NCBI RefSeq assembly: GCF_934772795.1
Contig: NZ_CAKVMR010000003.1
Span: forward strand, 831-64,830
Reading direction: 5' to 3'
Length of the DNA stretch: 64,000 bases
Source: an uncultured Holdemanella sp.
GTDB lineage: Bacteria > Bacillota_I > Bacilli_A > Erysipelotrichales > Erysipelotrichaceae
Every line of letters starts with the position of its first letter. The stretch's first letter is position 1. The position numbers and the translations under genes were made by a program. Under the pieces are notes generated by a model. It was not told where the DNA came from and searched no databases. It saw only the letters and a list, made by a program, of their open reading frames with translations. Below are positions 15,184 to 59,521 of this stretch, one piece after another.

Positions 15184-15642
15184 TTAGTCGTGGGTTTTAT
15201 TAACTTTTAATGTATCGTTAATTGTTTTTAAATTAAGCATTGCCATGTAAAGAACTTTCTTTTTCTCTTCTTTTTTATTAGACATTAAGATACTTTGCAA
15301 TTCAGAAATTATTGTAAAAATTGCATGTTGGTTATCTTCGTCTTCTTGTTCAAATATATTTAATACTCTTTTAAGCATTTGAGGGAATTCGTTATTTATA
15401 GAATTTAGAACATCTAAATCATCCCATATCATAGGCTCTCTTATATCTGTTTCTCCACGCAAAAAAGATCCACTCACATTAAAAAATTTTTCTAGTGCAA
15501 CCATATTCTGTGAGCTAGGTTCTCTTACGCCACGTTCCCAATTCATAATTGTTCTAAATGGAATATTTAATTGTTCACCCATTTGTTTTTGCGTTAAACC
15601 TTTTTCTTTTCTTAAAAGTCTTATGTTGTCAGCGAGCTTCAC
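15184..15642 (-). CDS. prophage repressor, XRE-family HTH
   Basis: IRLLRKEKGLTQKQMG...TIMNWERGVREP; divergent from early operon; GTG start after SD GAGGTG. Confidence 0.85.
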   Translation of the reverse strand: MKLADNIRLLRKEKGLTQKQMGEQLNIPFRTIMNWERGVREPSSQNMVALEKFFNVSGSFLRGETDIREPMIWDDLDVLNSINNEFPQMLKRVLNIFEQEDEDNQHAIFTIISELQSILMSNKKEEKKKVLYMAMLNLKTINDTLKVNKTHD

Positions 15643-15674
15643 GCTTATCACCTCTTTTATAGTATAGCAATTAT

Positions 15675-15775
15675 GTAACCACTTGGATAGAAAAAACACA
15701 TCTAATAAATAAAAAAACGTCTTGACCTAACCATGTGGGTATCTTATAATATAACTAATGTAGCCATATGGATAC
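15675..15775. promoter_or_regulatory. immunity region: three quasi-palindromic operators plus early promoter
   Basis: GTAACCACTTGGATAG (15675), CTAACCATGTGGGTAT (15727), GTAGCCATATGGATAC (15760); promoter TTGACC-17-TATAAT at 15722-15750. Confidence 0.75.
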
Positions 15776-15791
15776 ATTTGGAGGTGATTAT

Positions 15792-16001
15792 ATGTATTTA
15801 ATACCAAATATTGACGAAATCAAAAAGAAGAGAAAAGCTAAAGGTTTGTCTAAATGCAAATTATCTATTGAGGCAGGCTTAGGTAATCAAGCTCTAAGCA
15901 GAATTGAAAGGCAAGAAACAAAAAAGATACATCCGTTAAGAGCTAAAGAAATTGCAAGAGTATTGGAATGTAATGTAAATGATATTTTTAAGGAGGAATA
16001 A
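15792..16001 (+). CDS. Cro/Ner-like HTH regulator
   Basis: Small XRE HTH, first gene of early operon, SD GGAGGTG. Confidence 0.8.
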   Translation: MYLIPNIDEIKKKRKAKGLSKCKLSIEAGLGNQALSRIERQETKKIHPLRAKEIARVLECNVNDIFKEE

Positions 16002-16003
16002 TA

Positions 16004-16606
16004 ATGATTATTTTCTATTATAACGATAACAAACAAAACAATAACAAGGGTGTTAAAACCGAAGAAATAGATCGCATATTTTCTCACATAGAAAGGGCAT
16101 CCGAATCCAACATAGACGTTGAACAATGTGAAATAGACACATTAGTTGAAGAAACGAGTGAACATAAAACAAATAATTTTAGTAAAAATCTTCGTTTATT
16201 AAGAAAATCTTTCAAACTTAAACAAGAAGATATTGAAGAAAAAACTAATATTTCTCATCACACAATTGCAAGTTATGAAATTGGTAGACGTGAACCTACA
16301 GCTAAAAACCTTTGCTTGCTTGCAAAACTCTTCAATGTAAATCCTATGTACTTAATGGAGAATGACTTATCTAAACACAAATATTTGCATGTTGTTAGTA
16401 AGAGCAATAGTTTTGCAGAGAATTTAAAAATAATAAGAAATTCTTTAAAAATGACACAAAAAGAATTTGCTTATTACACTGGCTTAACTCTCAAATCAGT
16501 TATTAATTATGAAAATAAAGTTCATTTACCTGATTATTCAAGTTTAAAAATACTAGCTGAGAAGCTGGTTATAGATCCATTTGAATTAGTGGGTACTGGT
16601 AAATAA
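16004..16606 (+). CDS. protein with two tandem XRE HTH domains
   Basis: FSKNLRLLRK...SYEIGRREP and FAENLKIIRN...NYENKVHLP. Confidence 0.8.
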   Translation: MIIFYYNDNKQNNNKGVKTEEIDRIFSHIERASESNIDVEQCEIDTLVEETSEHKTNNFSKNLRLLRKSFKLKQEDIEEKTNISHHTIASYEIGRREPTAKNLCLLAKLFNVNPMYLMENDLSKHKYLHVVSKSNSFAENLKIIRNSLKMTQKEFAYYTGLTLKSVINYENKVHLPDYSSLKILAEKLVIDPFELVGTGK

Positions 16607-16614
16607 TGACCAGT

Positions 16615-16672
16615 CCTTCTTAATGCAGCCAACGGAGGTCACAAGCCCTCGTAATAATGCAGAGTGAGGAGG
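16615..16672 (+). ncRNA. twister ribozyme-like RNA (type P1), copy 1
   Basis: P1 CCTTC/GGAGG, U-AA cleavage loop, P2 TGCA/TGCA, P4 GAGG/CCTC with loop TCACAAGC, T1 TCAC/GTGA, T2 GC/GC, conserved GA. Confidence 0.85.
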
Positions 16673-16679
16673 TGGTTAA

Positions 16680-18608
16680 ATGGAGACGCTAACACTTCAA
16701 GAATTAGCAGAATTAAAAGGATGTCACAGAGTTAGAATTCAACAACTTGTCACAGAAGGATTTTATAAATCTGTACAAGTTAAAAATTCAAGAGGTAGAT
16801 TAGTTCATGCCATACCTCTAGATCAACTGACAGAAGAGGAACAACAAAAATACTACCAATCTAAGGGTATCTTAAACACTAACATTGAAGTACAGAATGC
16901 TGAAAAGCTGGAGCTTATGAGCACCCAAGAAAGAGAGGAATGTGTTTTTTGGGAAAACGTTATTAATGAATGGCAATCCTTCAGGAATAAAGAAAACGCA
17001 AGAAATAAGAGTGAAGTTGATGAACTATTCATCACAAAGATGAAGTTAGAACATCCTGAGCTTAATTTCTCTACAAGTATTCTTTACCGCAAGTTTAAAG
17101 CTTTAAAAAATGGAGATCTAGAAGGCTTGATTGATAAACGAGGAAAAAAGAAAAAAGGCTACACGAAAATTGATGAACATGTGTGGCAAGTATTCTTGAG
17201 CTTCTTGTTAGATCAAGCAAAGCATCCACTTAGAAAATGCTATCAATATACTCAACTATATATTCAAAATACAGCACCTGAGTTATATGAGGATATACCA
17301 GCTTATTGTACTTTTACAAGACATGTAAAAGCCGATATTCCTGATGCAATCTTAACTCTTGGAAGAGATGGAGATAAGGCATTTGATGATAGATGTGCGC
17401 CATACATACGAAGAACTTATGACAACATGGATTCGAATGACTACTGGATTGGAGACAACCATACAATCGATGTAATTGTTGGGGATGGCGAAAAGACGTT
17501 CAGACTTTACCTAACAGCCTTTATGGATGCACGAAGCGGAATTATGACATGTATCTACATTACAGATACCCCATCATCGCAAGCTTCAATTTATTCATTA
17601 AGACGAGGTATCAAGAAGTATGGAATACCTAAAAATGTTTACTTAGATAATGGTCGAGAGTTCTTAACATTTGACTTTGGCGGTTCAGGACACAGAAAAA
17701 AGAAAAAGGACGAAGATAAATTTACTCCTCCTCCGATTCTTGAACGCTTAGGAATCAATATGGTCAATGCACTCGTTAGAAACGCAAAAGCTAAGATTAT
17801 TGAACGAAGATTCTTAGATTTCAAAAATAGTATTTCTAGATTATTTGCAACTTATACAGGTGGAAATGTAGTTGAAAAGCCTGAGATCTTAAAAGTTGAA
17901 CTTAAAAACGGAAATATACCTGAAAAACAAGCATTTATCAAAGAAATAGAAGAGCTGATTGAATATTACTTGAATTATGAAGAATACAACGGTGCAGTTG
18001 CAGCGGATAAAGGTAAAAGAAAGATTGATGTTTATCAGGAAAACCTACATACGAAGACAACCGCAACCGAAGAGCAGTTAAATCTTATGATGTTAAGATC
18101 CACTCGAGCTCAAAAAGTGACAAGACGTGGCGTTAGTTTGAAGATTGGTGGAACTCAGCTGGATTACTTCAACAATGAATTAATCATGCAGATGCTGAAT
18201 AAGAAAGTTTATCTAAGATATGATCCAGATGATTTATCCAGAGTTAGAGTATATGACCTTGATGATAGATTCATCATGGAAGTTGAAGCAGACAATGTCG
18301 CAGTACTTGAATACGGCGCAAGTAAGGACGAAGTAAAACTTGCGATGGCTAAAACTAGAGAACTTAAGAAAGTTGCGAAGGAAGCAATCAAGGATTCAAT
18401 CATTGCTAATATCGATAGAAATACTGCACTTGAATTGTTGCTGAAATCTGCTAAAGACAACAAAGACAGTGATGTTTCTAAACCAAACTACGATTTAGAG
18501 ATCTTAAATGCGGATGAAAAGCCAATGTTATACAAAGTGCATGATGTGGATTTAGACAAGATGAATATAAACTCAATTAAGCGACAAGGAGGAGATTATT
18601 ATGCTTAA
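16680..18608 (+). CDS. MuA-like DDE transposase
   Basis: WIGDNHTID, YLDNGREF, AKIIERRF catalytic motifs; C-terminal VYLRYDPDDLSRVRVY. Confidence 0.92.
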   Translation: METLTLQELAELKGCHRVRIQQLVTEGFYKSVQVKNSRGRLVHAIPLDQLTEEEQQKYYQSKGILNTNIEVQNAEKLELMSTQEREECVFWENVINEWQSFRNKENARNKSEVDELFITKMKLEHPELNFSTSILYRKFKALKNGDLEGLIDKRGKKKKGYTKIDEHVWQVFLSFLLDQAKHPLRKCYQYTQLYIQNTAPELYEDIPAYCTFTRHVKADIPDAILTLGRDGDKAFDDRCAPYIRRTYDNMDSNDYWIGDNHTIDVIVGDGEKTFRLYLTAFMDARSGIMTCIYITDTPSSQASIYSLRRGIKKYGIPKNVYLDNGREFLTFDFGGSGHRKKKKDEDKFTPPPILERLGINMVNALVRNAKAKIIERRFLDFKNSISRLFATYTGGNVVEKPEILKVELKNGNIPEKQAFIKEIEELIEYYLNYEEYNGAVAADKGKRKIDVYQENLHTKTTATEEQLNLMMLRSTRAQKVTRRGVSLKIGGTQLDYFNNELIMQMLNKKVYLRYDPDDLSRVRVYDLDDRFIMEVEADNVAVLEYGASKDEVKLAMAKTRELKKVAKEAIKDSIIANIDRNTALELLLKSAKDNKDSDVSKPNYDLEILNADEKPMLYKVHDVDLDKMNINSIKRQGGDYYA

Positions 18609-19548
18609 CGTTGCAGTAAAAGAAAGACTTGAGAAATACATGAAAGAAGCTGGTGTTTCTCAAGCGAAGATTGCGCCACTGATTGGCGTGAGTATGACAG
18701 CTCTTTCGCAGTATAGAGGTGGTAAATACAAAGGCGATGTAACAGCAGTAGAAGCTAAAATCGTTGAATATTTAGACACTATTACTGAACAAAAGGAAAT
18801 CAAAGAAAAGGTTCAAACATATAAACCAATGGAAGATTACATTCCTATTTCTATCAGCGAAGATATTTATAAGATGATTAGATATGCTCAATTAAATGGA
18901 GGTATCGCAATCGCCCATGGTGATGCAGGAATTGGCAAAACAAAAGCGGCGCAGAAGTATGTAAGAGAAAATCCAACGCAAGCAATCTATATGGAAATGA
19001 GTCCTGTAGCTGGAACTCTAGGCAATATGCTTAGACTTCTAGCTAGGACACTTAAAATTCCTGAAAGTAGAAACAAGATGGAGTTGATGCTTTCGATTAG
19101 AGATAAGCTTGAAGGAACAAACAGAGTGATCATCATCGATGAAGCTCAACACTTGAAATTATCGGCTCTTGAACAGATAAGAACACTTGCTGATCCAAAC
19201 TCAATCACAGGAACAAAGGGTGTTGGAATCGTGTTGATTGGTAATACAGAGGTCTATTCAAAGATGAAAGGAAAACAGGAAGCACAATTCGCTCAGCTAT
19301 TTTCAAGAATCAAGATGAGCCGATATTATTCAACATCCAATGTTACGGATGATGATGTAGAAAAATTATTCCCAGCGTTAAAACAACAAGGATTGAATAA
19401 AGAATTGAACTTCTTAAAAGGTGTTTGTAAATCAAAATGGGGCATTCGTGGAGCAACCAATGTTTATGAAAATAGCATTAACAATGATGATGTTTCAGTC
19501 AACGGACTCTTTGCCATGGCTAGAACATTAGGAATAGAGGTTATTTAA
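18601..19548 (+). CDS. MuB-like AAA+ transposition ATPase
   Basis: N-terminal HTH, GDAGIGKT Walker A, IIIDEAQHL Walker B; follows transposase. Confidence 0.92.
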   Translation: MLNVAVKERLEKYMKEAGVSQAKIAPLIGVSMTALSQYRGGKYKGDVTAVEAKIVEYLDTITEQKEIKEKVQTYKPMEDYIPISISEDIYKMIRYAQLNGGIAIAHGDAGIGKTKAAQKYVRENPTQAIYMEMSPVAGTLGNMLRLLARTLKIPESRNKMELMLSIRDKLEGTNRVIIIDEAQHLKLSALEQIRTLADPNSITGTKGVGIVLIGNTEVYSKMKGKQEAQFAQLFSRIKMSRYYSTSNVTDDDVEKLFPALKQQGLNKELNFLKGVCKSKWGIRGATNVYENSINNDDVSVNGLFAMARTLGIEVI

Positions 19549-19627
19549 CAAATGATCTATAAAATCTGCACTGCCATAGTTGTATATGCAATCTATGTAA
19601 GTATAAAAAACAATAAAAAGGAGAGAA

Positions 19628-19891
19628 ATGAAAGTGCGAAAGAGAAAAATTAAAAAAACATTGATTAGCGTTGTAATCGGAGTGATTTTAGGTGTTTTGC
19701 TTAGTCAAGTAACTTCTAAGCTAAGCATACAAGACTGTTTGTTATTAGCATCTATTCTATTGATTCTTGTGATTGTAACTGCAGCTATTATGGCTGAAGA
19801 TCTAGAGATTAGAATTAAAAAAGCCTATTTAGAAGGAAAACAAACGCTAAATTGTAAATGCACACACACATTCAAAACTGAGGACGAATAA
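19628..19891 (+). CDS. small two-TM phage protein
   Basis: SD AGGAG; two hydrophobic segments. Confidence 0.65.
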   Translation: MKVRKRKIKKTLISVVIGVILGVLLSQVTSKLSIQDCLLLASILLILVIVTAAIMAEDLEIRIKKAYLEGKQTLNCKCTHTFKTEDE

Positions 19892-19894
19892 AGT

Positions 19895-19951
19895 CCTCCT
19901 TAATGCAGCCAACGGAGGTCACAAGCCCTCGAATAATGCAGAGTGAGGAGG
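19895..19951 (+). ncRNA. twister ribozyme-like RNA (type P1), copy 2
   Basis: P1 CCTCC/GGAGG; 31-nt core TAATGCAGCCAACGGAGGTCACAAGCCCTCG identical to copies 1 and 3; T1 TCAC/GTGA. Confidence 0.85.
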
Positions 19952-19959
19952 TGAAGCTA

Positions 19960-20223
19960 ATGAGATTAGAAAAAGATTCTCTATACTTTGAAGCTAGAGT
20001 TATCACTATGGTCGGCTCATTGCATTGGTTTGGTGATACTTATCTTGCTGAAGAATTGTTAAAGCTGGCAACGAAAACAGTTTATATCCGAGATGACAGA
20101 CGATATCTATATGTTTATCGAATCAAAGAAGATGCATTGTTTAATGTAGAAAAGATACAAACGACTTTTGAATTAGTATGCAAGTTGAAAAAACATGACG
20201 ATAAAAGAAGATATGGTAACTAG
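19960..20223 (+). CDS. hypothetical protein resembling the Mu transposase C-terminal domain
   Basis: SD GGAGGTG; YLAEELLKLATKTVYIRDD..LYVY resembles YFNNELIMQMLNKKVYLRYD..VRVY of the phage's own transposase. Confidence 0.55.
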   Translation: MRLEKDSLYFEARVITMVGSLHWFGDTYLAEELLKLATKTVYIRDDRRYLYVYRIKEDALFNVEKIQTTFELVCKLKKHDDKRRYGN

Positions 20224-20244
20224 TTCTTAAAGTAGGAGGAGTAT

Positions 20245-20616
20245 ATGGCAGCGAAGAAATATAAACGTATGACCAATCGTGAAAAAGACGAAAGAAAACG
20301 TTTCAAAAAGGATTTACAGGAAAAAGGGATTATCCCGCCTGATAAGCCAAGACTAAACAGAAAGAAGTTTGCTCAAGAAGTTTGTGATGAATGGAAAGAT
20401 TACAGCTTAGTAGAATATGCAAAACTGAACACATTTATGATCGTTTTAGGAATGATGACGAATTCAGGTCGATATGGAAATGTAAGTAAAGAAGATCTTG
20501 GCATTTTAAAACTTAAGAAATGTGCGATAGTTTTAGATCAAAAGTTTCAAGAGAACGATAATAAGATGACATATGAACAGATCATTGAAGTTCTTAAACC
20601 TATATGGGAATTGTGA
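20245..20616 (+). CDS. phage hypothetical protein
   Basis: SD AGGAGG; ORF in early operon. Confidence 0.7.
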   Translation: MAAKKYKRMTNREKDERKRFKKDLQEKGIIPPDKPRLNRKKFAQEVCDEWKDYSLVEYAKLNTFMIVLGMMTNSGRYGNVSKEDLGILKLKKCAIVLDQKFQENDNKMTYEQIIEVLKPIWEL

Positions 20617-20626
20617 GGTGATAAAA

Positions 20627-20806
20627 ATGGAATATCAGAATATGACCAATGAACAAATCAAAAGAAGAATTGAATGGATTGACAGAGAGTTGTTCTGTAT
20701 CGATATGAAAGACCGATGGGATGCTTGTGATTGGAGTTTAGTGCACGAGTATGAAAAGGAAAAAAGAGAGCTTCAGGCAAAATTGGAAGCTAGAATCGAA
20801 AAATAG
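20627..20806 (+). CDS. phage hypothetical protein
   Basis: SD GAGGTG before MEYQNMTNE. Confidence 0.6.
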   Translation: MEYQNMTNEQIKRRIEWIDRELFCIDMKDRWDACDWSLVHEYEKEKRELQAKLEARIEK

Positions 20807-20807
20807 T

Positions 20808-21026
20808 ATGACTGGACAAGAATTCTTTGAAAAAGTAACTAAAAACCCAAGATACAAGCACTTATATGAAGAAAATATACACTTCAATACGCAAATGCAA
20901 TATCTCAAGTCAAAGCCCAAAGTCCTCACTTCAACCTTGCTAGGTTCAATTGCATACTTAAGCGTACTTCTTATGTATCAAGATCTAGAAAAAATAAGAG
21001 AAAGTGACAATGAAATAGGAGTTTAA
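20808..21026 (+). CDS. phage hypothetical protein
   Basis: ATG immediately after preceding stop (MTGQEFF...). Confidence 0.5.
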   Translation: MTGQEFFEKVTKNPRYKHLYEENIHFNTQMQYLKSKPKVLTSTLLGSIAYLSVLLMYQDLEKIRESDNEIGV

Positions 21027-21062
21027 CATGGATAAAAAAGTGGTTTTAAACAAACTTAAAAA

Positions 21063-21686
21063 ATGCAAGAGGATGAAGCAATGAAAAGATCTCTTCTGAT
21101 GGTTTCACTAATAATCACTATCATAGTAACGAATAAGATATATGCATTGACAATTACTCCTGCGAATAAACCAATAGAAGTCGAAACACAAATTGTTGAA
21201 ACTAAAGCTAAGGAGTTAAAAACAGAGGTCAAAACATACTACAATGTCCCTCTTGATATGGATTTGCAAGATTATATAAGAGAAGAGTGCATAGATGCAG
21301 GATTAGATATGAAATTAGTACTTGCGATTATGAAAGTAGAAAGTAATTTCAATCCAGAAGATATATCATGCACAGATGATTTTGGACTTATGCAAGTCAA
21401 TAAAGTCAATTTTGAAGAGGTAGAAAGAGAGTTAGGACTAACAAATATGCTTGATCCATACCAAGGCGCTAAGGCTGGCATCTTCTTATTAAGCAAGTTG
21501 AAATGGAACGAAAGCGAACATCAAATGCTTATGGCTTATAACATTGGTTTTGCAGGAGCTCAAAAGTTATGGGAACAAGGCATTTATGAAACAGACTACT
21601 CTAAAAAAGTATTAAAAGCAAAAGAACTGATAGGAGGTACTCAATATGAAATCACAGTATTTTGTGATCAAGAATCTGAACGGTGA
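21063..21686 (+). CDS. lytic transglycosylase (SLT domain) with N-terminal hydrophobic segment
   Basis: LAIMKVESNFNP, GLMQVN, AYNIG motifs; start probably 21081. Confidence 0.85.
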   Translation: MQEDEAMKRSLLMVSLIITIIVTNKIYALTITPANKPIEVETQIVETKAKELKTEVKTYYNVPLDMDLQDYIREECIDAGLDMKLVLAIMKVESNFNPEDISCTDDFGLMQVNKVNFEEVERELGLTNMLDPYQGAKAGIFLLSKLKWNESEHQMLMAYNIGFAGAQKLWEQGIYETDYSKKVLKAKELIGGTQYEITVFCDQESER

Positions 21687-21813
21687 AAAGCGATTTGTCG
21701 AGATTGATGAAGAGCTAACAGAGGAAGAGTTTATGGCTTACTTTTCTTTATATGTTAAAGAAGCCTATCCGATTACAGAAGATGAATACAAAAAATGCAC
21801 TGGGGATAAATAA
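21646..21813 (+). CDS. small acidic phage protein, 55 aa (not in ORF track)
   Basis: SD AGGAGG; MKSQYFVIKNLNGEKRFVEIDEEL...CTGDK. Confidence 0.65.
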   Translation: MKSQYFVIKNLNGEKRFVEIDEELTEEEFMAYFSLYVKEAYPITEDEYKKCTGDK

Positions 21814-21818
21814 CCCAT

Positions 21819-21873
21819 TGCTCTAATGCAGCCAACGGAGGTCACAAGCCCTCGGATAATGCAGAGTGGAGCA
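21819..21873 (+). ncRNA. twister ribozyme-like RNA (type P1), copy 3
   Basis: Same core; compensatory P1 TGCT/AGCA; T1 TCAC/GTGG. Confidence 0.82.
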
Positions 21874-21898
21874 TAGGAAAACAAAGGAGGAAAAACAG

Positions 21899-22156
21899 AT
21901 GGAAAACAAACTATTTAAAAAGATTTCTAGAACTGGTGGAATTACGATTCCTGCACAGATTAGACATCAGATGAACATTCCAAAAGGTGCAGCAGTAGAA
22001 ATCGTTCAAACGGAAGACAATAGCCTTCTCATCAAAAAGCATATTCCCACATGCATGTGTTGTGGAACTGCTGACCATGTAAAAGTATTTAATAATGTAG
22101 AACTATGCACTACATGTGCTAGTAAGTTTGCTGGAGGTGGCGAACATGGAAATTAG
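21899..22156 (+). CDS. AbrB/MazE/SpoVT-family DNA-binding protein with C-terminal Cys cluster
   Basis: KKISRTGGITIPAQIR..MNI..GAAVEI; CMCCG...CTTC. Confidence 0.8.
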   Translation: MENKLFKKISRTGGITIPAQIRHQMNIPKGAAVEIVQTEDNSLLIKKHIPTCMCCGTADHVKVFNNVELCTTCASKFAGGGEHGN

Positions 22157-22778
22157 AGAGAAAGTTGATCGCTACGCTGAATTAGATGCACAATTGGCTG
22201 GCATCAAAAATGAAATGGAAAATTTAAAGGCTGATTTTGAAGAATACGCCGAAAAAGATCTGCAGGATACAAAACTAAAAACCGTAGAAATCTATGGAAA
22301 TAATGGTGCTAAAGTCATCGTACAAAATGCGGCTACAGTAAAACCAATTTCGTGGGTAGTTATCAAAGAGGTTTTAGGAAAGACTGTTCCTGATTTTATT
22401 AAAGAAGAAACAAAGCTCTCATTGACCGATGTTGCCAAAACAATGTTGGCGAATATGTTCAAAGGAGATTATATTGAAGACACATTATCTAATGTTGTCA
22501 CTCATATGACTCCTGATCAGAAGAAACAAGCGCTTCTTATGAAACGTTTAAAAGGAAAATACAAGCAAGATCAAAAGAACATCTTGAAGTACACAGACCT
22601 TAGCGAAAAAGAAGCGAGTGATAATGCATTCCTTGTACAGGATGTTATGGCTTATCAAAATATCTTGAGAATCATTGAAGCTTCGGGATTTGATGGAACG
22701 GTTGAAGAAGCAGTTGCTAAAATCAAGAGTTCATTGATTGTTGAAGATTCAATCAAGGTAACGCTAGAAGCGGAATAA
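22146..22778 (+). CDS. phage hypothetical protein (coiled-coil N-terminus)
   Basis: SD GGAGGTG; lies among Mu-like early genes. Confidence 0.7.
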   Translation: MEIREKVDRYAELDAQLAGIKNEMENLKADFEEYAEKDLQDTKLKTVEIYGNNGAKVIVQNAATVKPISWVVIKEVLGKTVPDFIKEETKLSLTDVAKTMLANMFKGDYIEDTLSNVVTHMTPDQKKQALLMKRLKGKYKQDQKNILKYTDLSEKEASDNAFLVQDVMAYQNILRIIEASGFDGTVEEAVAKIKSSLIVEDSIKVTLEAE

Positions 22779-22795
22779 CGGAAAGGAGCAATCTT

Positions 22796-23245
22796 ATGAA
22801 AACTGTTGAGAGATGGCAGACCAAAAAAATATATGCTATTGCAAATGCATTAGGATATGTTGATCGCCAAGATAAAGATAATGACATCTTGCATATGATT
22901 ATTTTTAGTCAGACATGTAAACATTCAACTAAGGAACTAACGTATCGTGAAGCCAATGAAATCATCGCCTACTTGGAAAAACAACAGAATAATAAGATTG
23001 ATGAAGTTATGACAGCAGGACAAAAGAAGAAATGCTGGTCATTGATGTATGAGCTTCAATCTTTGGATAGAGAACCAAATAATGCTCCTGTAGGCGAAAG
23101 ATTGGCGGGTATTATAGAAAGACAGTTCCAAGTAAAATCAACCCCACAACGCATATTTAATCGTCTTTCAAGAGATGATGGAAACAAACTGATTGAAATT
23201 TTAAAAAACTACGTTAGGACGGCTGAAAGAAAATGGATGAATTAA
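22796..23245 (+). CDS. GemA-like (Mu gp16) regulatory protein
   Basis: QTKKIYAIANALG...STKELT..EA..II...GNKLIEILK pattern; adjacent to mor as in Mu. Confidence 0.6.
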   Translation: MKTVERWQTKKIYAIANALGYVDRQDKDNDILHMIIFSQTCKHSTKELTYREANEIIAYLEKQQNNKIDEVMTAGQKKKCWSLMYELQSLDREPNNAPVGERLAGIIERQFQVKSTPQRIFNRLSRDDGNKLIEILKNYVRTAERKWMN

Positions 23246-24927: not shown

Positions 24928-25443
24928 ATGTGGTGTGTGATACAAGTGAAAGGAAGCCAAGAGCTTCAAATACAGAAGCAATTAGAGTTGGCTGGGTATC
25001 AAGCTCTTGTTCCAAGAGAAAGTCGCTTGATTCGTTCAGGAGGCGCTTGGATGCAAAGAGAATACATATTATTTCCTAACTATGTTTTCGTACAAACCAA
25101 ATTCAAAGCCGAAGACTTTTACAAAATCAAAGGTATTAATGGGGTTCAACGTTTCTTGGGGGACAAAACTTCTCCATCCACTCTTACCTTCCTGGAAGAA
25201 GAATGGGTAAAAATTTTAAACAACGATGGTCATCCGTTAGAACCAACTGAGGTAACGGTAGATGAAGATGGAAATGTCATCATTTTAAAAGGTATCCTTT
25301 TAAAATTTAAAAGCAGAATAAAAAGTTTTAATAAAAGACAAAGAAAAGCAACATTTGAAATTACTGTATGTAATGAAATTAAAGAAATCACGTTGAGTTT
25401 GAATGTGATTGATACTACAAAGCCAACAGAAACAAACGGTTGA
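24928..25443 (+). CDS. NusG-paralog (LoaP/UpxY-like) transcription antiterminator
   Basis: WCVIQVKGSQE, ILFPNYVFV, GVQRFLG NGN motifs; KOW-like C-terminus. Confidence 0.85.
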   Translation: MWCVIQVKGSQELQIQKQLELAGYQALVPRESRLIRSGGAWMQREYILFPNYVFVQTKFKAEDFYKIKGINGVQRFLGDKTSPSTLTFLEEEWVKILNNDGHPLEPTEVTVDEDGNVIILKGILLKFKSRIKSFNKRQRKATFEITVCNEIKEITLSLNVIDTTKPTETNG

Positions 25444-25633
25444 TTCGTCCTGTAAGCGGAAATTGGTGGTTAAATAGCATGAACCATCCTAGAAAATAAA
25501 ATATCTAGGATGGCGAAGCACACCCTAATGTTCGTAAAGGGCGCATTACCTTTTAATTCGCGCAAAAACCCCTTTAAAAAACGAATTAGGCATAAAGTTG
25601 AGTAATTGTGGGGTACAAGAAAAAACAACGCTT

Positions 25634-25681: not shown

Positions 25682-27448
25682 ATGGGAAGACTCAAAAAAA
25701 GAAGTTTAGACATGCTTTTGGAAGGAATTTTGGAAGCTGAAAATCAAATAGCAGATAGTGAAGCATATGATACGCAAGAATATACAACCTATTTGAACGA
25801 CCTTTTAAAAGAGTTTTTAAAAAAGGACAACAACCTTTTAAGAAAACAACTTCTTGATGATTTTGAAAGAGGAGCTCCTCTTACTGGAAAGAATGGAATA
25901 CGAAAAAAACTGGCTTCGTTTGATATGGAATTTTTTGGAAGAGCCTACCTTCCTCATTACTTTGTCAGAAAGTCTCCCCACTTTCATGAAGAGCTCGATA
26001 ACATTTGGAAGCATGGCGTTATGAAAGACGAAGTACCACTTTCAAAAAGCGTTCAAAAGAAGATAAGCAGAATGGCAGGTTGCAAAAGAGCGATTGCTGC
26101 ACCTCGTGGTCATGCTAAATCAACGAACCTTACATTCAAAGGATCACTTCATGCAGCATTATATGAGTATAAGCACTACATCATTATCTTGTCCGATAGT
26201 TCAGAACAGGCTGAGAGTTTCTTAGATTCTATTAAAACCGAGATGGAAGAAAATGAACATATCATCGAAGATTTTGGGAAACTAGATGGTAAGGTATGGC
26301 GTTCGAACGTTTTATTAACAAAGACAAACATAAAAATTGAAGCTATTGGTTCAGGCAAAAAGATTCGTGGTAGAAAGCACAAGAATTGGAGGCCTGATTT
26401 ATTGGTTCTTGATGATATTGAGAATGATGAAAATGTAAGAACGGTTGACCAGCGAAAGAAACTATCCGACTGGTTTTATAAGGCAGTATCGAAAGCTGGT
26501 GATGATTACACCGATATTATTTATATTGGAACAATGCTTCATTATGATTCGTTGCTTGCTAATGTGTTGAAAAATCCAAGCTATAAAAGCATTAAATATC
26601 AAGCAGTCCTTTCTTTTTCATCTGCAGTTGATCTATGGGATGAATGGGAAAAGATATATACCGACCTTGATGAACCTGAACATGAAGCTAAAGCGTTGCA
26701 TTTCTTTGAACAACATAAAAAAGAAATGCTGGAAGGTACAAAAGTGTTATGGGAAGACAAACTTTCCTATTACAACCTTATGTGCATCAAGGTGTCTGAA
26801 GGTGATGCCTCATTCAATTCAGAATTACAGAATGAACCAATCAGCCCTGATGATTGCTTGTTCCAGGAAGAATGGTTTGATTACTACAACGAATTTGAAA
26901 TGAACTTTAATTCGAAGGATTTTGAATTCTATGGAGCAGTAGATCCATCGCTTGGTAAGAATAAGAAATCAGACTATTCAGCCATTATCACTATCGCCAA
27001 ACAAAAGGCAACTGGATATATGTATGTTATTGATGCCGATGTGATGCGTAGACATCCTGATCGCATCATTAACGATGTGCTCGAAAAAGAAAGATGGCTT
27101 AGAAAGACTTATGGAAAAGGTTTTAAAAAACTTGGCTGTGAAACTGTACAGTTCCAATGGTTCTTGAAAGAGGAAATTTCCAAAGCTTCTGCTAAAGCTG
27201 GGCTCTACTTGCCAATCGAAGAAATCAATTCAACTGGTGACAAGGTGCTGCGTATTCAATCGCTGCAACCTGACATCAAGAATAAATACATCAAGTTCAA
27301 TCGTAGACACAAATTGCTTTTAGAACAGCTTATGCATTTTCCTATGGCAAGCCATGATGATGCGCCTGATGCATTGGAAATGGCACGAACGATTGCTAAA
27401 AAAGGAAAGAGATTCAGAATATTAGACCGTTCGCTTTTTGGAGGATAG
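25682..27448 (+). CDS. terminase large subunit
   Basis: APRGHAKS Walker A, RGRKH, LVLDDIE, AVDPSLG, HDDAPDA nuclease motif. Confidence 0.93.
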   Translation: MGRLKKRSLDMLLEGILEAENQIADSEAYDTQEYTTYLNDLLKEFLKKDNNLLRKQLLDDFERGAPLTGKNGIRKKLASFDMEFFGRAYLPHYFVRKSPHFHEELDNIWKHGVMKDEVPLSKSVQKKISRMAGCKRAIAAPRGHAKSTNLTFKGSLHAALYEYKHYIIILSDSSEQAESFLDSIKTEMEENEHIIEDFGKLDGKVWRSNVLLTKTNIKIEAIGSGKKIRGRKHKNWRPDLLVLDDIENDENVRTVDQRKKLSDWFYKAVSKAGDDYTDIIYIGTMLHYDSLLANVLKNPSYKSIKYQAVLSFSSAVDLWDEWEKIYTDLDEPEHEAKALHFFEQHKKEMLEGTKVLWEDKLSYYNLMCIKVSEGDASFNSELQNEPISPDDCLFQEEWFDYYNEFEMNFNSKDFEFYGAVDPSLGKNKKSDYSAIITIAKQKATGYMYVIDADVMRRHPDRIINDVLEKERWLRKTYGKGFKKLGCETVQFQWFLKEEISKASAKAGLYLPIEEINSTGDKVLRIQSLQPDIKNKYIKFNRRHKLLLEQLMHFPMASHDDAPDALEMARTIAKKGKRFRILDRSLFGG

Positions 27449-45234: not shown

Positions 45235-45398
45235 CTGCTCTTGTAATTAGGTATATGATGGATACGTCTGTCATTTCAAATCAAGGGAATAAAGGAGTCT
45301 AATTCCATGCTGAATAAGCAAAAAAATTAAATAAAGATGAAAACCGATAGTAATGTTAAATGAACTCCGTTAAGCATCTTAAAAATTAGGTGATGATC

Positions 45399-46553
45399 AT
45401 GGCGAAAATAAAGAATGTATATGACTATATCGTTAGTGATGAAAACATATACAAGGCTTATTTAAACGCTCGTAAAAACAAAAGATATAGAAAAGATGTA
45501 CTCATATTTACCCAAAATCTAGAAGCAAATCTAGTTAAGATTCAAAATGAATTAAGAAGTGAAGTTGCTGATTATCCTAAATATAAAGAGTTCTATATTT
45601 ACGAACCAAAGTGTCGTTTGATCCTTGCTCAAGACTTTCCTGAAGTGATAAAACAGTGGGCGTTTTATCAAGTTTTAAGCCCTATGTTTACTAGGATGTA
45701 CATCAAGGATTCCTATGCTTGCATCAAAGGAAAAGGACAAATTGCAGCAGTTAAAAGACTTCATTATTGGCTTAAATTAGTCAATAGCACAAGATACAAT
45801 AAGCTGAAACACGGTTTAGATGTATCCGATCTAAACAAGTGGTATTACTTGAAAATAGACTTTAGCAAATACTTTTATAGAGTAGATCATAAAGTCATGA
45901 TTGATGTATTGAAGAAGAAAATTAAGGATAATCGTGTTGTTAGATGGCTTGCAACCCGCATAGAAAGCCCTGATATGCCTTTTGGTTTGCCTAGAGGCAT
46001 GCGTCCTGAAGATGTTGAAATGAGCGAACGTTTATATGATAAAGGAATGCCAGTGGGCGCTTTGATTTCACAGATGTTAGCGAATGTTTATAATGATCAG
46101 ATAGATCAATATGCTAAAAGGACATTAGGAATCAAGTGTTATATACGCTATCAGGATGATATTGTGGTGCTTTCTGATGATAAGAAACAAATAAAAGAAT
46201 GGCATCAAAAACTAGAAAAGTTCGCAAATAATGTCATGAAAATGGAAATGAACCAAAAGACCTGTATTAGACCAATCAATCAAGGAATAGAATTTTGTGG
46301 TTTTCGCTTATGGGCTACACATATAAAAATAAGGAAGAGCACATCCTTGAGAATTAAAAGGAACTTAAAAGGCGTGATGAAACGATACAATGAAGGAGAT
46401 TGCACTTTAGAACACGCTATGCAAGTAGTTAATTCATATTTTGGGCTGTTGAAACATTGTAATAGTTACGCATTAAAAACAGAAATATTTGGTGATTATG
46501 AAAAAGGAATAGATGGTTGGTTTGTACTGACTAGAAATCAAGGTAACGATTAA
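45399..46553 (+). CDS. DGR reverse transcriptase
   Basis: YEPKCRLI, DSYACIKGKG, YYLKIDFSKYF, GMPVGALISQ..AN, YIRYQDD, IEFCGF; avd/TR context. Confidence 0.93.
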   Translation: MAKIKNVYDYIVSDENIYKAYLNARKNKRYRKDVLIFTQNLEANLVKIQNELRSEVADYPKYKEFYIYEPKCRLILAQDFPEVIKQWAFYQVLSPMFTRMYIKDSYACIKGKGQIAAVKRLHYWLKLVNSTRYNKLKHGLDVSDLNKWYYLKIDFSKYFYRVDHKVMIDVLKKKIKDNRVVRWLATRIESPDMPFGLPRGMRPEDVEMSERLYDKGMPVGALISQMLANVYNDQIDQYAKRTLGIKCYIRYQDDIVVLSDDKKQIKEWHQKLEKFANNVMKMEMNQKTCIRPINQGIEFCGFRLWATHIKIRKSTSLRIKRNLKGVMKRYNEGDCTLEHAMQVVNSYFGLLKHCNSYALKTEIFGDYEKGIDGWFVLTRNQGND

Positions 46554-59269: not shown

Positions 59270-59319
59270 ATTTGCTCAAAATACGTTTTATAGCGTATAA
59301 TAAACAAGTCAATAAGCTT

Positions 59320-59521
59320 AGAAAAGAAGAGTATTTATATGGCGTACTAAAGAGAGCGGATGGTTTGGTGTGAATCTGCGTACAATATATAGAGAAGATG
59401 GTCTTGGAGCTTCTTTATCGATAGGTAGGTAAAGACGTATGCTGGCGTTAACAGCTTGAGGTGTGAAAACACAAACTAAGGTGGTACCACGAAGCTTTCG
59501 TCCTTGGATGAAGGCTTTTTT
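59320..59521 (+). promoter_or_regulatory. T-box riboswitch (Met specifier) with terminator
   Basis: AGAGA and GGTGTGAA stem I motifs, ATG specifier at 59398-59400, T-box AAGGTGGTACCACG at 59478-59491, terminator AAGCTTTCGTCC/GGATGAAGGCTT plus T run; upstream of metG. Confidence 0.9.

Follow-up and report, generated by a model that had tools for sequence, protein, structure and literature searches.

Predicted twister ribozymes of a Mu-like prophage and a closing stem that doubles as the Shine-Dalgarno sequence of the next gene

Twister and hammerhead ribozymes are enriched near the genes of Mu-like phages, an association that has already been published with its reason given as unknown (PMC10085705), and reviews describe the biological role of both classes in bacteria as largely unknown (PMC5408937, PMC6765202). 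For prophage hammerhead arrays, processing of polycistronic RNA has been proposed (PMC3088659; review PMC6765202); in the accessible text of PMC3088659, the terms 'Shine', 'ribosome bind' and 'translat' are absent and the exact placement relative to the ribosome-binding site (RBS) is not discussed. An engineered twister in which stem P1 masks the Shine-Dalgarno (SD) sequence yielded ~5-fold more reporter with the active than with the inactive ribozyme in Escherichia coli, a P3-format twister reached ~100-fold regulation, and hammerhead platforms that mask the SD are cited in the same work; absolute expression of the P1 format was reduced because the folded ribozyme remains just 5' of the SD (PMC5052635). 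Here we analyze three twister motifs that sit in the early operon of a Mu-like prophage, within a 64,000-nucleotide (nt) stretch of DNA from an uncultured Holdemanella sp. (the window). In two of them, the closing stem P1 contains the SD of the following gene, in one case that of the MuA transposase, and comparison with related phages indicates a predicted self-cleaving ribozyme at a fixed position directly 5' of the MuA RBS.

All three motifs lie on the plus strand, as do all features described below unless stated otherwise. In copy 1, the 5' strand of P1, CCUUCU (16615-16620), is an anti-SD strand that pairs over 6 base pairs (bp), including one G-U, with AGGAGG (16667-16672); this 3' strand is the SD of MuA (GGAGG, 16668-16672), located 7 nt before the ATG at 16680. 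Copy 2 is arranged likewise: CCUCCU (19895-19900) forms 6 Watson-Crick bp with AGGAGG (19946-19951), which is the SD (GGAGG, 19947-19951) of an 87-amino-acid open reading frame (ORF 19960) and is positioned 8 nt before the ATG at 19960. Copy 3 has a P1 of 5 bp, UGCUC (21819-21823) with GAGCA (21869-21873), and the gene that follows, with its ATG at 21899, has a separate SD, GGAGG at 21886-21890, 13 nt past P1. The SD is paired in a helix that would turn two-piece on cleavage in copies 1 and 2, and not in copy 3. This anatomy had been recognized in the original prediction, which placed the SDs of MuA and ORF 19960 in P1 and gave copy 3 a different P1 and an SD of its own; the coordinates for copies 1 and 2 proved correct, and the description of copy 3 is confirmed. 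A related phage supports the two start codons: in it, MuA aligns from Met1 without offset (L149, 45% identity over the N-terminal part) and so does the ORF 19960 product (L148, 50% identity over the N-terminal part); L148 and L149 lie on one contig. On the sequence evidence, the P1-SD overlap is real and maintained, though uncommon. We consider it maintained because P1 covaries even where the proteins encoded downstream share just 45-50% identity in their N-terminal parts.

The assignment of the three elements to the twister class was derived from Rfam and from comparative analysis. At the gathering threshold (67.2 bits for RF03160), Rfam gave no match at the coordinates of the three motifs. 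An E-value scan of 15500-23000 of the window (7.5 kb) returned full-length matches to the twister-P1 model (RF03160) for copy 1 at 16617-16670 (45.8 bits, E 7.2e-08), copy 2 at 19897-19949 (46.3 bits, E 5.1e-08) and copy 3 at 21820-21872 (44.4 bits, E 1.7e-07). The scores stay below the gathering score because P3 positions are deleted in all three alignments; this cut-off serves curation and does not describe structure. Like P0 and P5, P3 is an optional stem of twisters (PMC5408937). Helices P1, P2 and P4 occur in type-P1 order in all three copies, and the motifs end in P1. Relative to the Rfam consensus, all conserved core positions are present, including the U-A cleavage step, with a compensated T1 pair (C to A together with G to U) as the sole deviation. 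In copy 1, the core (16621-16666) comprises the predicted cleavage site U16621/A16622, P2 (16624-27/16658-61), T2 (16628-29/16645-46), P4 (16635-37/16648-50) and T1 (16640-42/16664-66). Cleavage is predicted at U19901/A19902 in copy 2 (core 19901-19945) and at U21824/A21825 in copy 3 (21819-21873 including P1), the scissile step of the copies being assigned by homology. The motifs are 52-54 nt long without P3 or P5 insertions, and neither a sensor domain nor another RNA family overlapping them was found.

Comparison with related sequences revealed compensatory changes in several helices. Among 10 related twisters that lack P3, the P2 and T1 pairs are invariant, P4 changes from A-U to C-G in three and from G-C to A-U in one, and T2 changes from G-C to A-U in three. 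The inner five P1 pairs are formed in 48/50 cells, and each pair changes on both sides somewhere in the set. Overall, pairing is seen in 92% of the cells, and sliding the partners by 1-3 columns lowers this to 32-52%. A further pattern scan placed no constraint on the two middle positions of T1; of the 104 distinct phage twisters, 103 have a Watson-Crick pair there (A-U 90, C-G 7, G-C 3 and U-A 3), the other being an A-C mismatch. We conclude that the three elements are genuine twister motifs as judged from their sequences, for which self-cleavage is predicted. If the motifs were inactive relics or DNA-level repeats that overlap the SD by coincidence, scores below the gathering score and near-identical cores (44/46 columns identical among the three copies) would be expected; however, the compensatory changes in P1, P4, T1 and T2, the presence of every conserved core position in the Rfam alignment and the conservation of the position across phages make this account hardly credible. 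The RF03160 matches are the only three in the 2.34-Mb assembly, and just 3/151 sampled genomes of the same family contain a twister match, the window's genome included, with no added independent lineages; the ribozymes therefore appear to travel with the phage. As a separate observation, the copies appear to evolve in concert within each phage. Comparing the cores of the window (16621-16666, 19901-19945 and 21824-21868) with those of the related phage L013 (2918-2970, 3264-3315 and 5544-5596), T2 is G-C in all three window copies and A-U in all three L013 copies, a sharing that suggests homogenization or recent duplication within each genome.

The frequency of the overlap was estimated in phage genomes. 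IMG/VR was scanned with a pattern covering the core's 3' half, which yielded at least 129 loci; 112 matches had a 5' half within 90 nt, and 92 of them were non-redundant. These 92 twisters constitute an unbiased sample among the matches listed, and all numbers taken from the sample, here and below, apply among those matches. A strong SD with a start codon and an open frame 10-60 nt downstream was present for 43/92 twisters, compared to 3/92 in the antisense control; by the best-SD criterion, a strong SD and a start within 60 nt were found for 42/92. For these 42 twisters, the distance from core end to start has an overall median of 29 nt and a bimodal distribution: five twisters have 13-16 nt, the other 37 have 23-44 nt, and the interval of 17-22 nt is empty. 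The SD does not overlap P1 in 38 of the 42 and overlaps it by 1 nt in three. The prevalent layout is thus that of copy 3, and the rare one that of copies 1 and 2.

To describe the rare layout, we used a directed scan for GGAGG 0-3 nt from the core, a sample shaped by the choice of pattern. It returned 17 loci, of which 15, on nine contigs, are twisters, and L147 and L151 were discarded as they have no twister 5' half. An ATG lies 11-14 nt past the core in 14/15; L150 is a twister with GGAGG and no start nearby. The P1 5' strands complementary to the SD in this set are CCUUCU, CCUCCU, CUUCCU, UCUCCU, UCUCCA and CUCCU. The set contains the two module types of the window and several others. Upstream of MuA in L149, P1 is CUUCCU/AGGAGG, with P4 and loops that differ from those of the window; the corresponding pairs are UCUCCU/AGGAGG in L148, UCUCCA/UGGAGG in L159 and CUUCCU-like CUCCU/GGGAG in L160. 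A further pair, UCUCCAG/CUGGAGG, comes from L013, whose MuA is 75% identical. The 3' strand is held by its SD role, the 5' strand varies chiefly by C/U exchange opposite G, and where the SD is shifted outward the inner P1 pairs covary. In L146, the twister and SD module of copy 2 precedes an unrelated gene (protein MATKKYKRM...), which implies a mosaic junction just 3' of the SD. By this pattern of exchanges, P1-SD pairing is maintained within a small group of related modules.

A broader regularity emerged from the MuA genes themselves. An alignment-based scan returned 24 MuA relatives; five at 95-99% identity were set aside, together with L174 and L182, which are without the N-terminus, leaving 17 loci at 38-71% identity. 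In 16/17 of these divergent loci, a predicted ribozyme lies directly 5' of the MuA RBS. Two are twisters (L170, on the contig shared with L149, and L171), and 14 are type II hammerheads, of which 12 were identified by Rfam (L172, L173, L175, L177, L178, L179, L180, L181, L183, L184, L186 and L187) and two by eye only (L176, second copy, and L188). In L185, no ribozyme was found 5' of MuA in the 94 nt of upstream DNA available. The Rfam hammerheads score 36.4-47.8 bits; in 11 loci, 14-41 nt separate the end of the model from the MuA match, and in L186 the gap is 127 nt. A genome-derived relative, L007, likewise has a hammerhead upstream of MuA. The SD is located inside the closing helix in L170 alone of the 16 ribozyme-bearing loci. 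In L171, the SD AGGAGG starts right after a 4-bp P1, and in the hammerhead loci the SD is free, often as the conserved AAAGGCAGGUGA. What is conserved is the presence of a predicted self-cleaving ribozyme, twister or hammerhead, directly before the MuA RBS, not SD masking, and the predicted class is interchangeable at a fixed genomic position. We also considered sequestration of the SD in the closing stem II of the hammerheads and rejected it: a possible distal CACAU/AUGUG pairing in L014/L176 and a GCAGG repeat in L172 do not recur in other hammerhead loci. An observation on the coding side is that the MuA genes of L172, L173 and L175 have ACG where close relatives have TTG, and the conserved AGGUGA motif contains a GTG in frame.

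As the best explanation of the data as a whole, to which we give slightly better than an even chance, the twisters cut the early polycistronic RNA before the RBSs, and in copies 1 and 2 the cut also frees the SD held in P1. The anatomy, the covariation and the conserved ribozyme slot are observed directly in the genomes, and from them we infer cleavage in vivo, masking, release and an effect on translation. In the layout, which all three sites share, the upstream ORF ends in the P0 loop, followed by the 5' strand of P1, the cut site, a core of ~45 nt and the RBS of the next gene. Each ribozyme would self-cleave co-transcriptionally and separate the cistrons, so that the 5' product would end in P0 and the 3' product would begin with a 5'-OH buried in the compact ribozyme fold; a buried 5' end of the twister 3' fragment is suggested by crystallography (PMC8782182). 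In uncut copies 1 and 2, P1 would be formed and stacked on the pseudoknot T1, with the SD base-paired. After the cut, P1 would be a two-piece helix of 6 bp from which the upstream fragment would depart, aided by formation of P0, and the SD would be freed, thereby tying translation of MuA and ORF 19960 to RNA processing. Unmasking of the RBS by cleavage, as put forward in the original prediction, is plausible, has an engineered precedent and would be, in comparative terms, a lineage-specific extra.

Folding energies were calculated with a nearest-neighbour model in two set-ups, the results of which depend on the flanks and ignore pseudoknots and the stacking of P1 on T1. In 6/8 cases with the SD in P1, the predicted cost of opening the SD is greater before than after cleavage by 2.3-7.8 kcal/mol, the respective differences for the controls being 0.6 kcal/mol for copy 3 and 1.4 kcal/mol for L171. 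After cleavage, the two-piece P1 is calculated at -5.8 kcal/mol in copy 1 and -8.7 kcal/mol in copy 2, suggesting a weak helix that should fall apart. Before cleavage, P0 and P1 of copy 1 coexist at -16.9 kcal/mol, of which P1 contributes -6.8, and copy 2 reaches -14.8 kcal/mol with core and P0 compared to -15.0 kcal/mol with core and the 6-bp P1.

A hairpin corresponding to the optional stem P0 directly precedes P1 in nearly all of the twisters. In copy 1, the P0 hairpin (ACUGG/CCAGU, 16595-16614) directly abuts P1. In copy 2 (19880-19898; GAGGAC 19880-85, GUCCUC 19893-98), the 3' arm of P0 overlaps 4 nt of the P1 5' strand, and P0 therefore competes with P1. Of the 8 cases with the SD in P1, 7 have a P0 whose 3' arm extends over the outer 3-5 nt of the potential 5' strand of P1, which makes the P0 5' arm itself SD-like. 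The exception is copy 1, but the minimum free energy fold of its upstream flank alone also pairs the P1 5' strand with upstream bases. For L159, the overlap of 3-4 nt was read by eye, the strict P1 count being zero from an innermost G-A mismatch. In 9/12 cases examined, 11-17 nt lie between the first base of the upstream stop codon and the U of the cleavage site, and the stop is usually in the P0 loop; in the window, the distance is 17 nt for copy 1, 12 nt for copy 2 and 13 nt for copy 3, and the stops TAA 16604-16606 (copy 1) and TAA 19889-19891 (copy 2) are within P0 loops. On its own account, the segment 16595-16624, with P0 of copy 1 and the U/C-rich P1 5' strand, resembles a weak intrinsic terminator, and partial termination may occur before MuA.

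These P0 features would fit a three-way switch, in which two partners compete for the pyrimidine strand, an SD-like purine arm within the last part of the upstream ORF (forming P0) and the genuine SD (forming P1), and translation or termination upstream decides both masking and the ribozyme fold. The overlap of the P0 3' arm with the P1 5' strand, the equal stability of the two states in copy 2 and the position of the stop codons all agree with such a switch. From the size of the ribosome footprint, a terminating ribosome would reach the P1 5' strand. However, P0 is also present in 35/37 separate-SD twisters, with its 3' end 0-5 nt from the cleavage-site U, and is hence general and not specific to masking, and the simple P0 of copy 1 abuts P1 without overlap. 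We consider the switch unlikely.

Several observations weigh against the release of a P1-held SD as the function of the arrangement. The scores of all three motifs (44.4-46.3 bits) are under the Rfam gathering score of 67.2 bits. In the unbiased sample, the SD lies wholly in P1 for 1/42 twisters, and this case, L118, is the window's own lineage; among the ribozyme-bearing MuA relatives, 15/16 have a free-standing SD (L171 and the 14 hammerhead loci). P1 3' strands are purine-rich in general, with 79% purine in the first 4 nt, even where they are too far from the start to be its SD, and they start with AGG, GAG, GGA or GGG in 50/90; an SD-like P1 is therefore less surprising and partly a family habit. 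In the folding calculations, the gain in SD accessibility on cleavage of the MuA copy is +2.2 kcal/mol in one set-up and -0.4 kcal/mol in the other, depending on the flanks, and it is +0.3 kcal/mol for L158, a close variant of the MuA copy. Given the equal stability of P0 and P1 in copy 2, P1 may often be 2 bp, and the SD would then be accessible in uncut RNA as well. Twisters are reported to cleave without P1 (PMC5408937), which renders masking and cutting separable. In addition, twister is among the fastest ribozymes, with rates up to ~1000 per min at the optimum (PMC6154101), which argues against a strong regulatory role.

A rival account is compaction without regulatory effect, in which the ribozymes only cut the polycistronic RNA and define its ends, the start has moved beside a P1 strand that was already purine-rich and the masked state barely exists. 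In its favor, the conserved feature is the ribozyme slot and not masking, P1 3' strands are SD-like family-wide, and twister cleavage is fast; the two groups of core-to-start distances, separated by the empty interval at 17-22 nt, are as expected from the loss of a spacer. However, in several contexts the 5' strand of P1 follows the SD across 5-8 nt, also in the shifted register of L159 and L013_a, and the overlap persists next to proteins whose N-terminal parts have diverged to 45-50% identity. Moreover, P1 has 5-8 bp here, compared to a median of 4 bp in separate-SD twisters, the latter being an underestimate because the measure requires contiguous pairing and gives 0 for several real twisters with an innermost mismatch or offset. 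Compaction alone is possible in our estimation, with a probability well short of even, and we retain as the preferred explanation that the twisters cut before the RBSs and that P1 of copies 1 and 2 releases the SD upon cleavage.

The original prediction had gone further and proposed a timer or safety catch, with self-cleavage delaying or gating transposase synthesis and thereby controlling replicative transposition. The points in its favor are anatomical, namely the MuA SD in P1 and the conservation of ribozymes 5' of MuA. Twister kinetics are fast, the motif has no sensor domain, the same module also precedes the unrelated 87-amino-acid ORF and, in L146, another gene, and the SD is unmasked in most MuA relatives; the proposal found no support, and we deem it very unlikely. 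In our reading, the arrangement is a lineage-specific, compacted form of a general rule, a ribozyme immediately 5' of the MuA RBS, and not a timer.

That rule invites a wider proposal, which we offer tentatively and consider rather unlikely as a whole: ribozymes may be built into the MuA initiation region in Mu-like phages of Firmicutes, where a cut at a short fixed distance 5' of the RBS would be required for a translatable, stable MuA mRNA, with the 5'-OH capped by the folded ribozyme and a strong SD, and where the twister P1 would be an SD mask, released by P0 or set by ribosomes finishing the upstream gene. In Bacillus, 5'-terminal structure together with a strong SD stabilizes mRNA, and RNase J1 can use RNA with a 5'-OH end as substrate; on this background, the ribozyme cap and the strong SD could also matter for stability.

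The prophage spans 15.2-45 kb of the window, as delineated by gene content with Pfam and PHROGs profiles, and is Mu-like in having MuA, a MuB ATPase, GemA, Mor and Mu gp27 in Mu order, 3' of a repressor and Cro/Ner-type regulators. The divergent helix-turn-helix (HTH) repressor occupies 15184-15699 on the minus strand. A candidate early promoter, TTGACC-17-TATAAT at 15722-15750, identified by consensus match alone (11/12 positions), precedes the plus-strand operon, which consists of an HTH regulator (15768-16001), a second HTH regulator of 200 amino acids with two HTH_3 domains (16004-16606, stop TAA 16604-16606), MuA and MuB. MuA (16680-18608) is a transposase of 642 amino acids (phrog_310, E 3.8e-99; Pfam Mu-transpos_C and HTH_Tnp_Mu_2), and its closest named records are from Holdemanella sp. 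(99% identity) and "Eubacterium sp." (95%). The MuB-like AAA+ transposition protein (18601-19548; phrog_296, E 1.1e-66; AAA_22) is followed by a small ORF of 87 amino acids (19628-19891, stop TAA 19889-19891), copy 2 and ORF 19960 (19960-20223), which is conserved in one related phage and gave no Pfam or PHROGs match. The gene after copy 3 encodes a MazE/AbrB-like small protein of 85 amino acids (21899-22156). Further prophage genes are small ORFs, an SLT transglycosylase, GemA, Mor, Mu gp27, a NusG-like protein and the large terminase. Three other RNA elements were detected in the window. A RAGATH-28 RNA (25434-25519, 55.5 bits, gathering 45.3) lies upstream of the large terminase gene (25682-27448) and overlaps the 3'-terminal part of the gene for the NusG-like protein (24928-25443); an RT-14 RNA (45238-45379, 65.9 bits, above gathering) is located directly upstream of an ORF of 387 amino acids (45390-46553); and a T-box leader (59310-59508, 128.7 bits) lies outside the prophage.

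With respect to what was known before, the window ribozymes are new representatives of an established class and lie in a familiar type of neighbourhood. Full-text literature searches, which did not cover the 2014 twister or the 2015 pistol/hatchet/twister-sister papers, found no natural twister with P1 as SD in the accessible texts, and a fixed ribozyme slot at the MuA RBS was not described in the accessible portions of the literature searched. The locus and its relatives provide a precise and testable picture, in which a predicted ribozyme is fixed between the stop of one gene and the RBS of the next, the MuA slot is kept despite a swap of ribozyme class and one lineage uses the SD itself in the closing stem, a design that synthetic biologists made by hand. 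An SD mask is a possible reason for the conservation of P1 though catalysis needs no P1. If ribozymes are indeed built into the MuA initiation region, this would for the first time assign a concrete function to twister and hammerhead ribozymes of bacteria; if masking is without effect, the value is smaller, that of a well-defined example of intercistronic processing in a phage.

Among described systems, the closest are the type-P1 twisters of RF03160, with which the window copies share fold and core (P1, P2, P4, T1, T2 and optional P0) as well as the Mu-like genomic company, including the RAGATH-28 RNA in the window prophage; they differ in being without P3, in scoring below gathering and, in copies 1 and 2, in a P1 3' strand that is the SD of the next gene. 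The glmS ribozyme likewise alters the fate of downstream mRNA by self-cleavage in the 5' leader, but it needs a metabolite cofactor, lowers expression and does not involve the SD. It is mentioned in both reviews (PMC6765202, PMC5408937). The window twisters share with it the idea of leader cleavage, whereas they have no ligand domain and their predicted effect is permissive. In prophage hammerhead arrays, several ribozymes similarly flank single genes or short blocks within an operon, and relatives of the window phage carry type II hammerheads 5' of MuA. The engineered SD-masking platforms follow the same logic, with the SD paired in a ribozyme helix and freed by cleavage, and the topology of the P1 format is that of the window; those platforms are synthetic, tested in E. 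coli and often coupled to aptamers, whereas the arrangement in the window is natural, has no sensor domain and is known from sequence.

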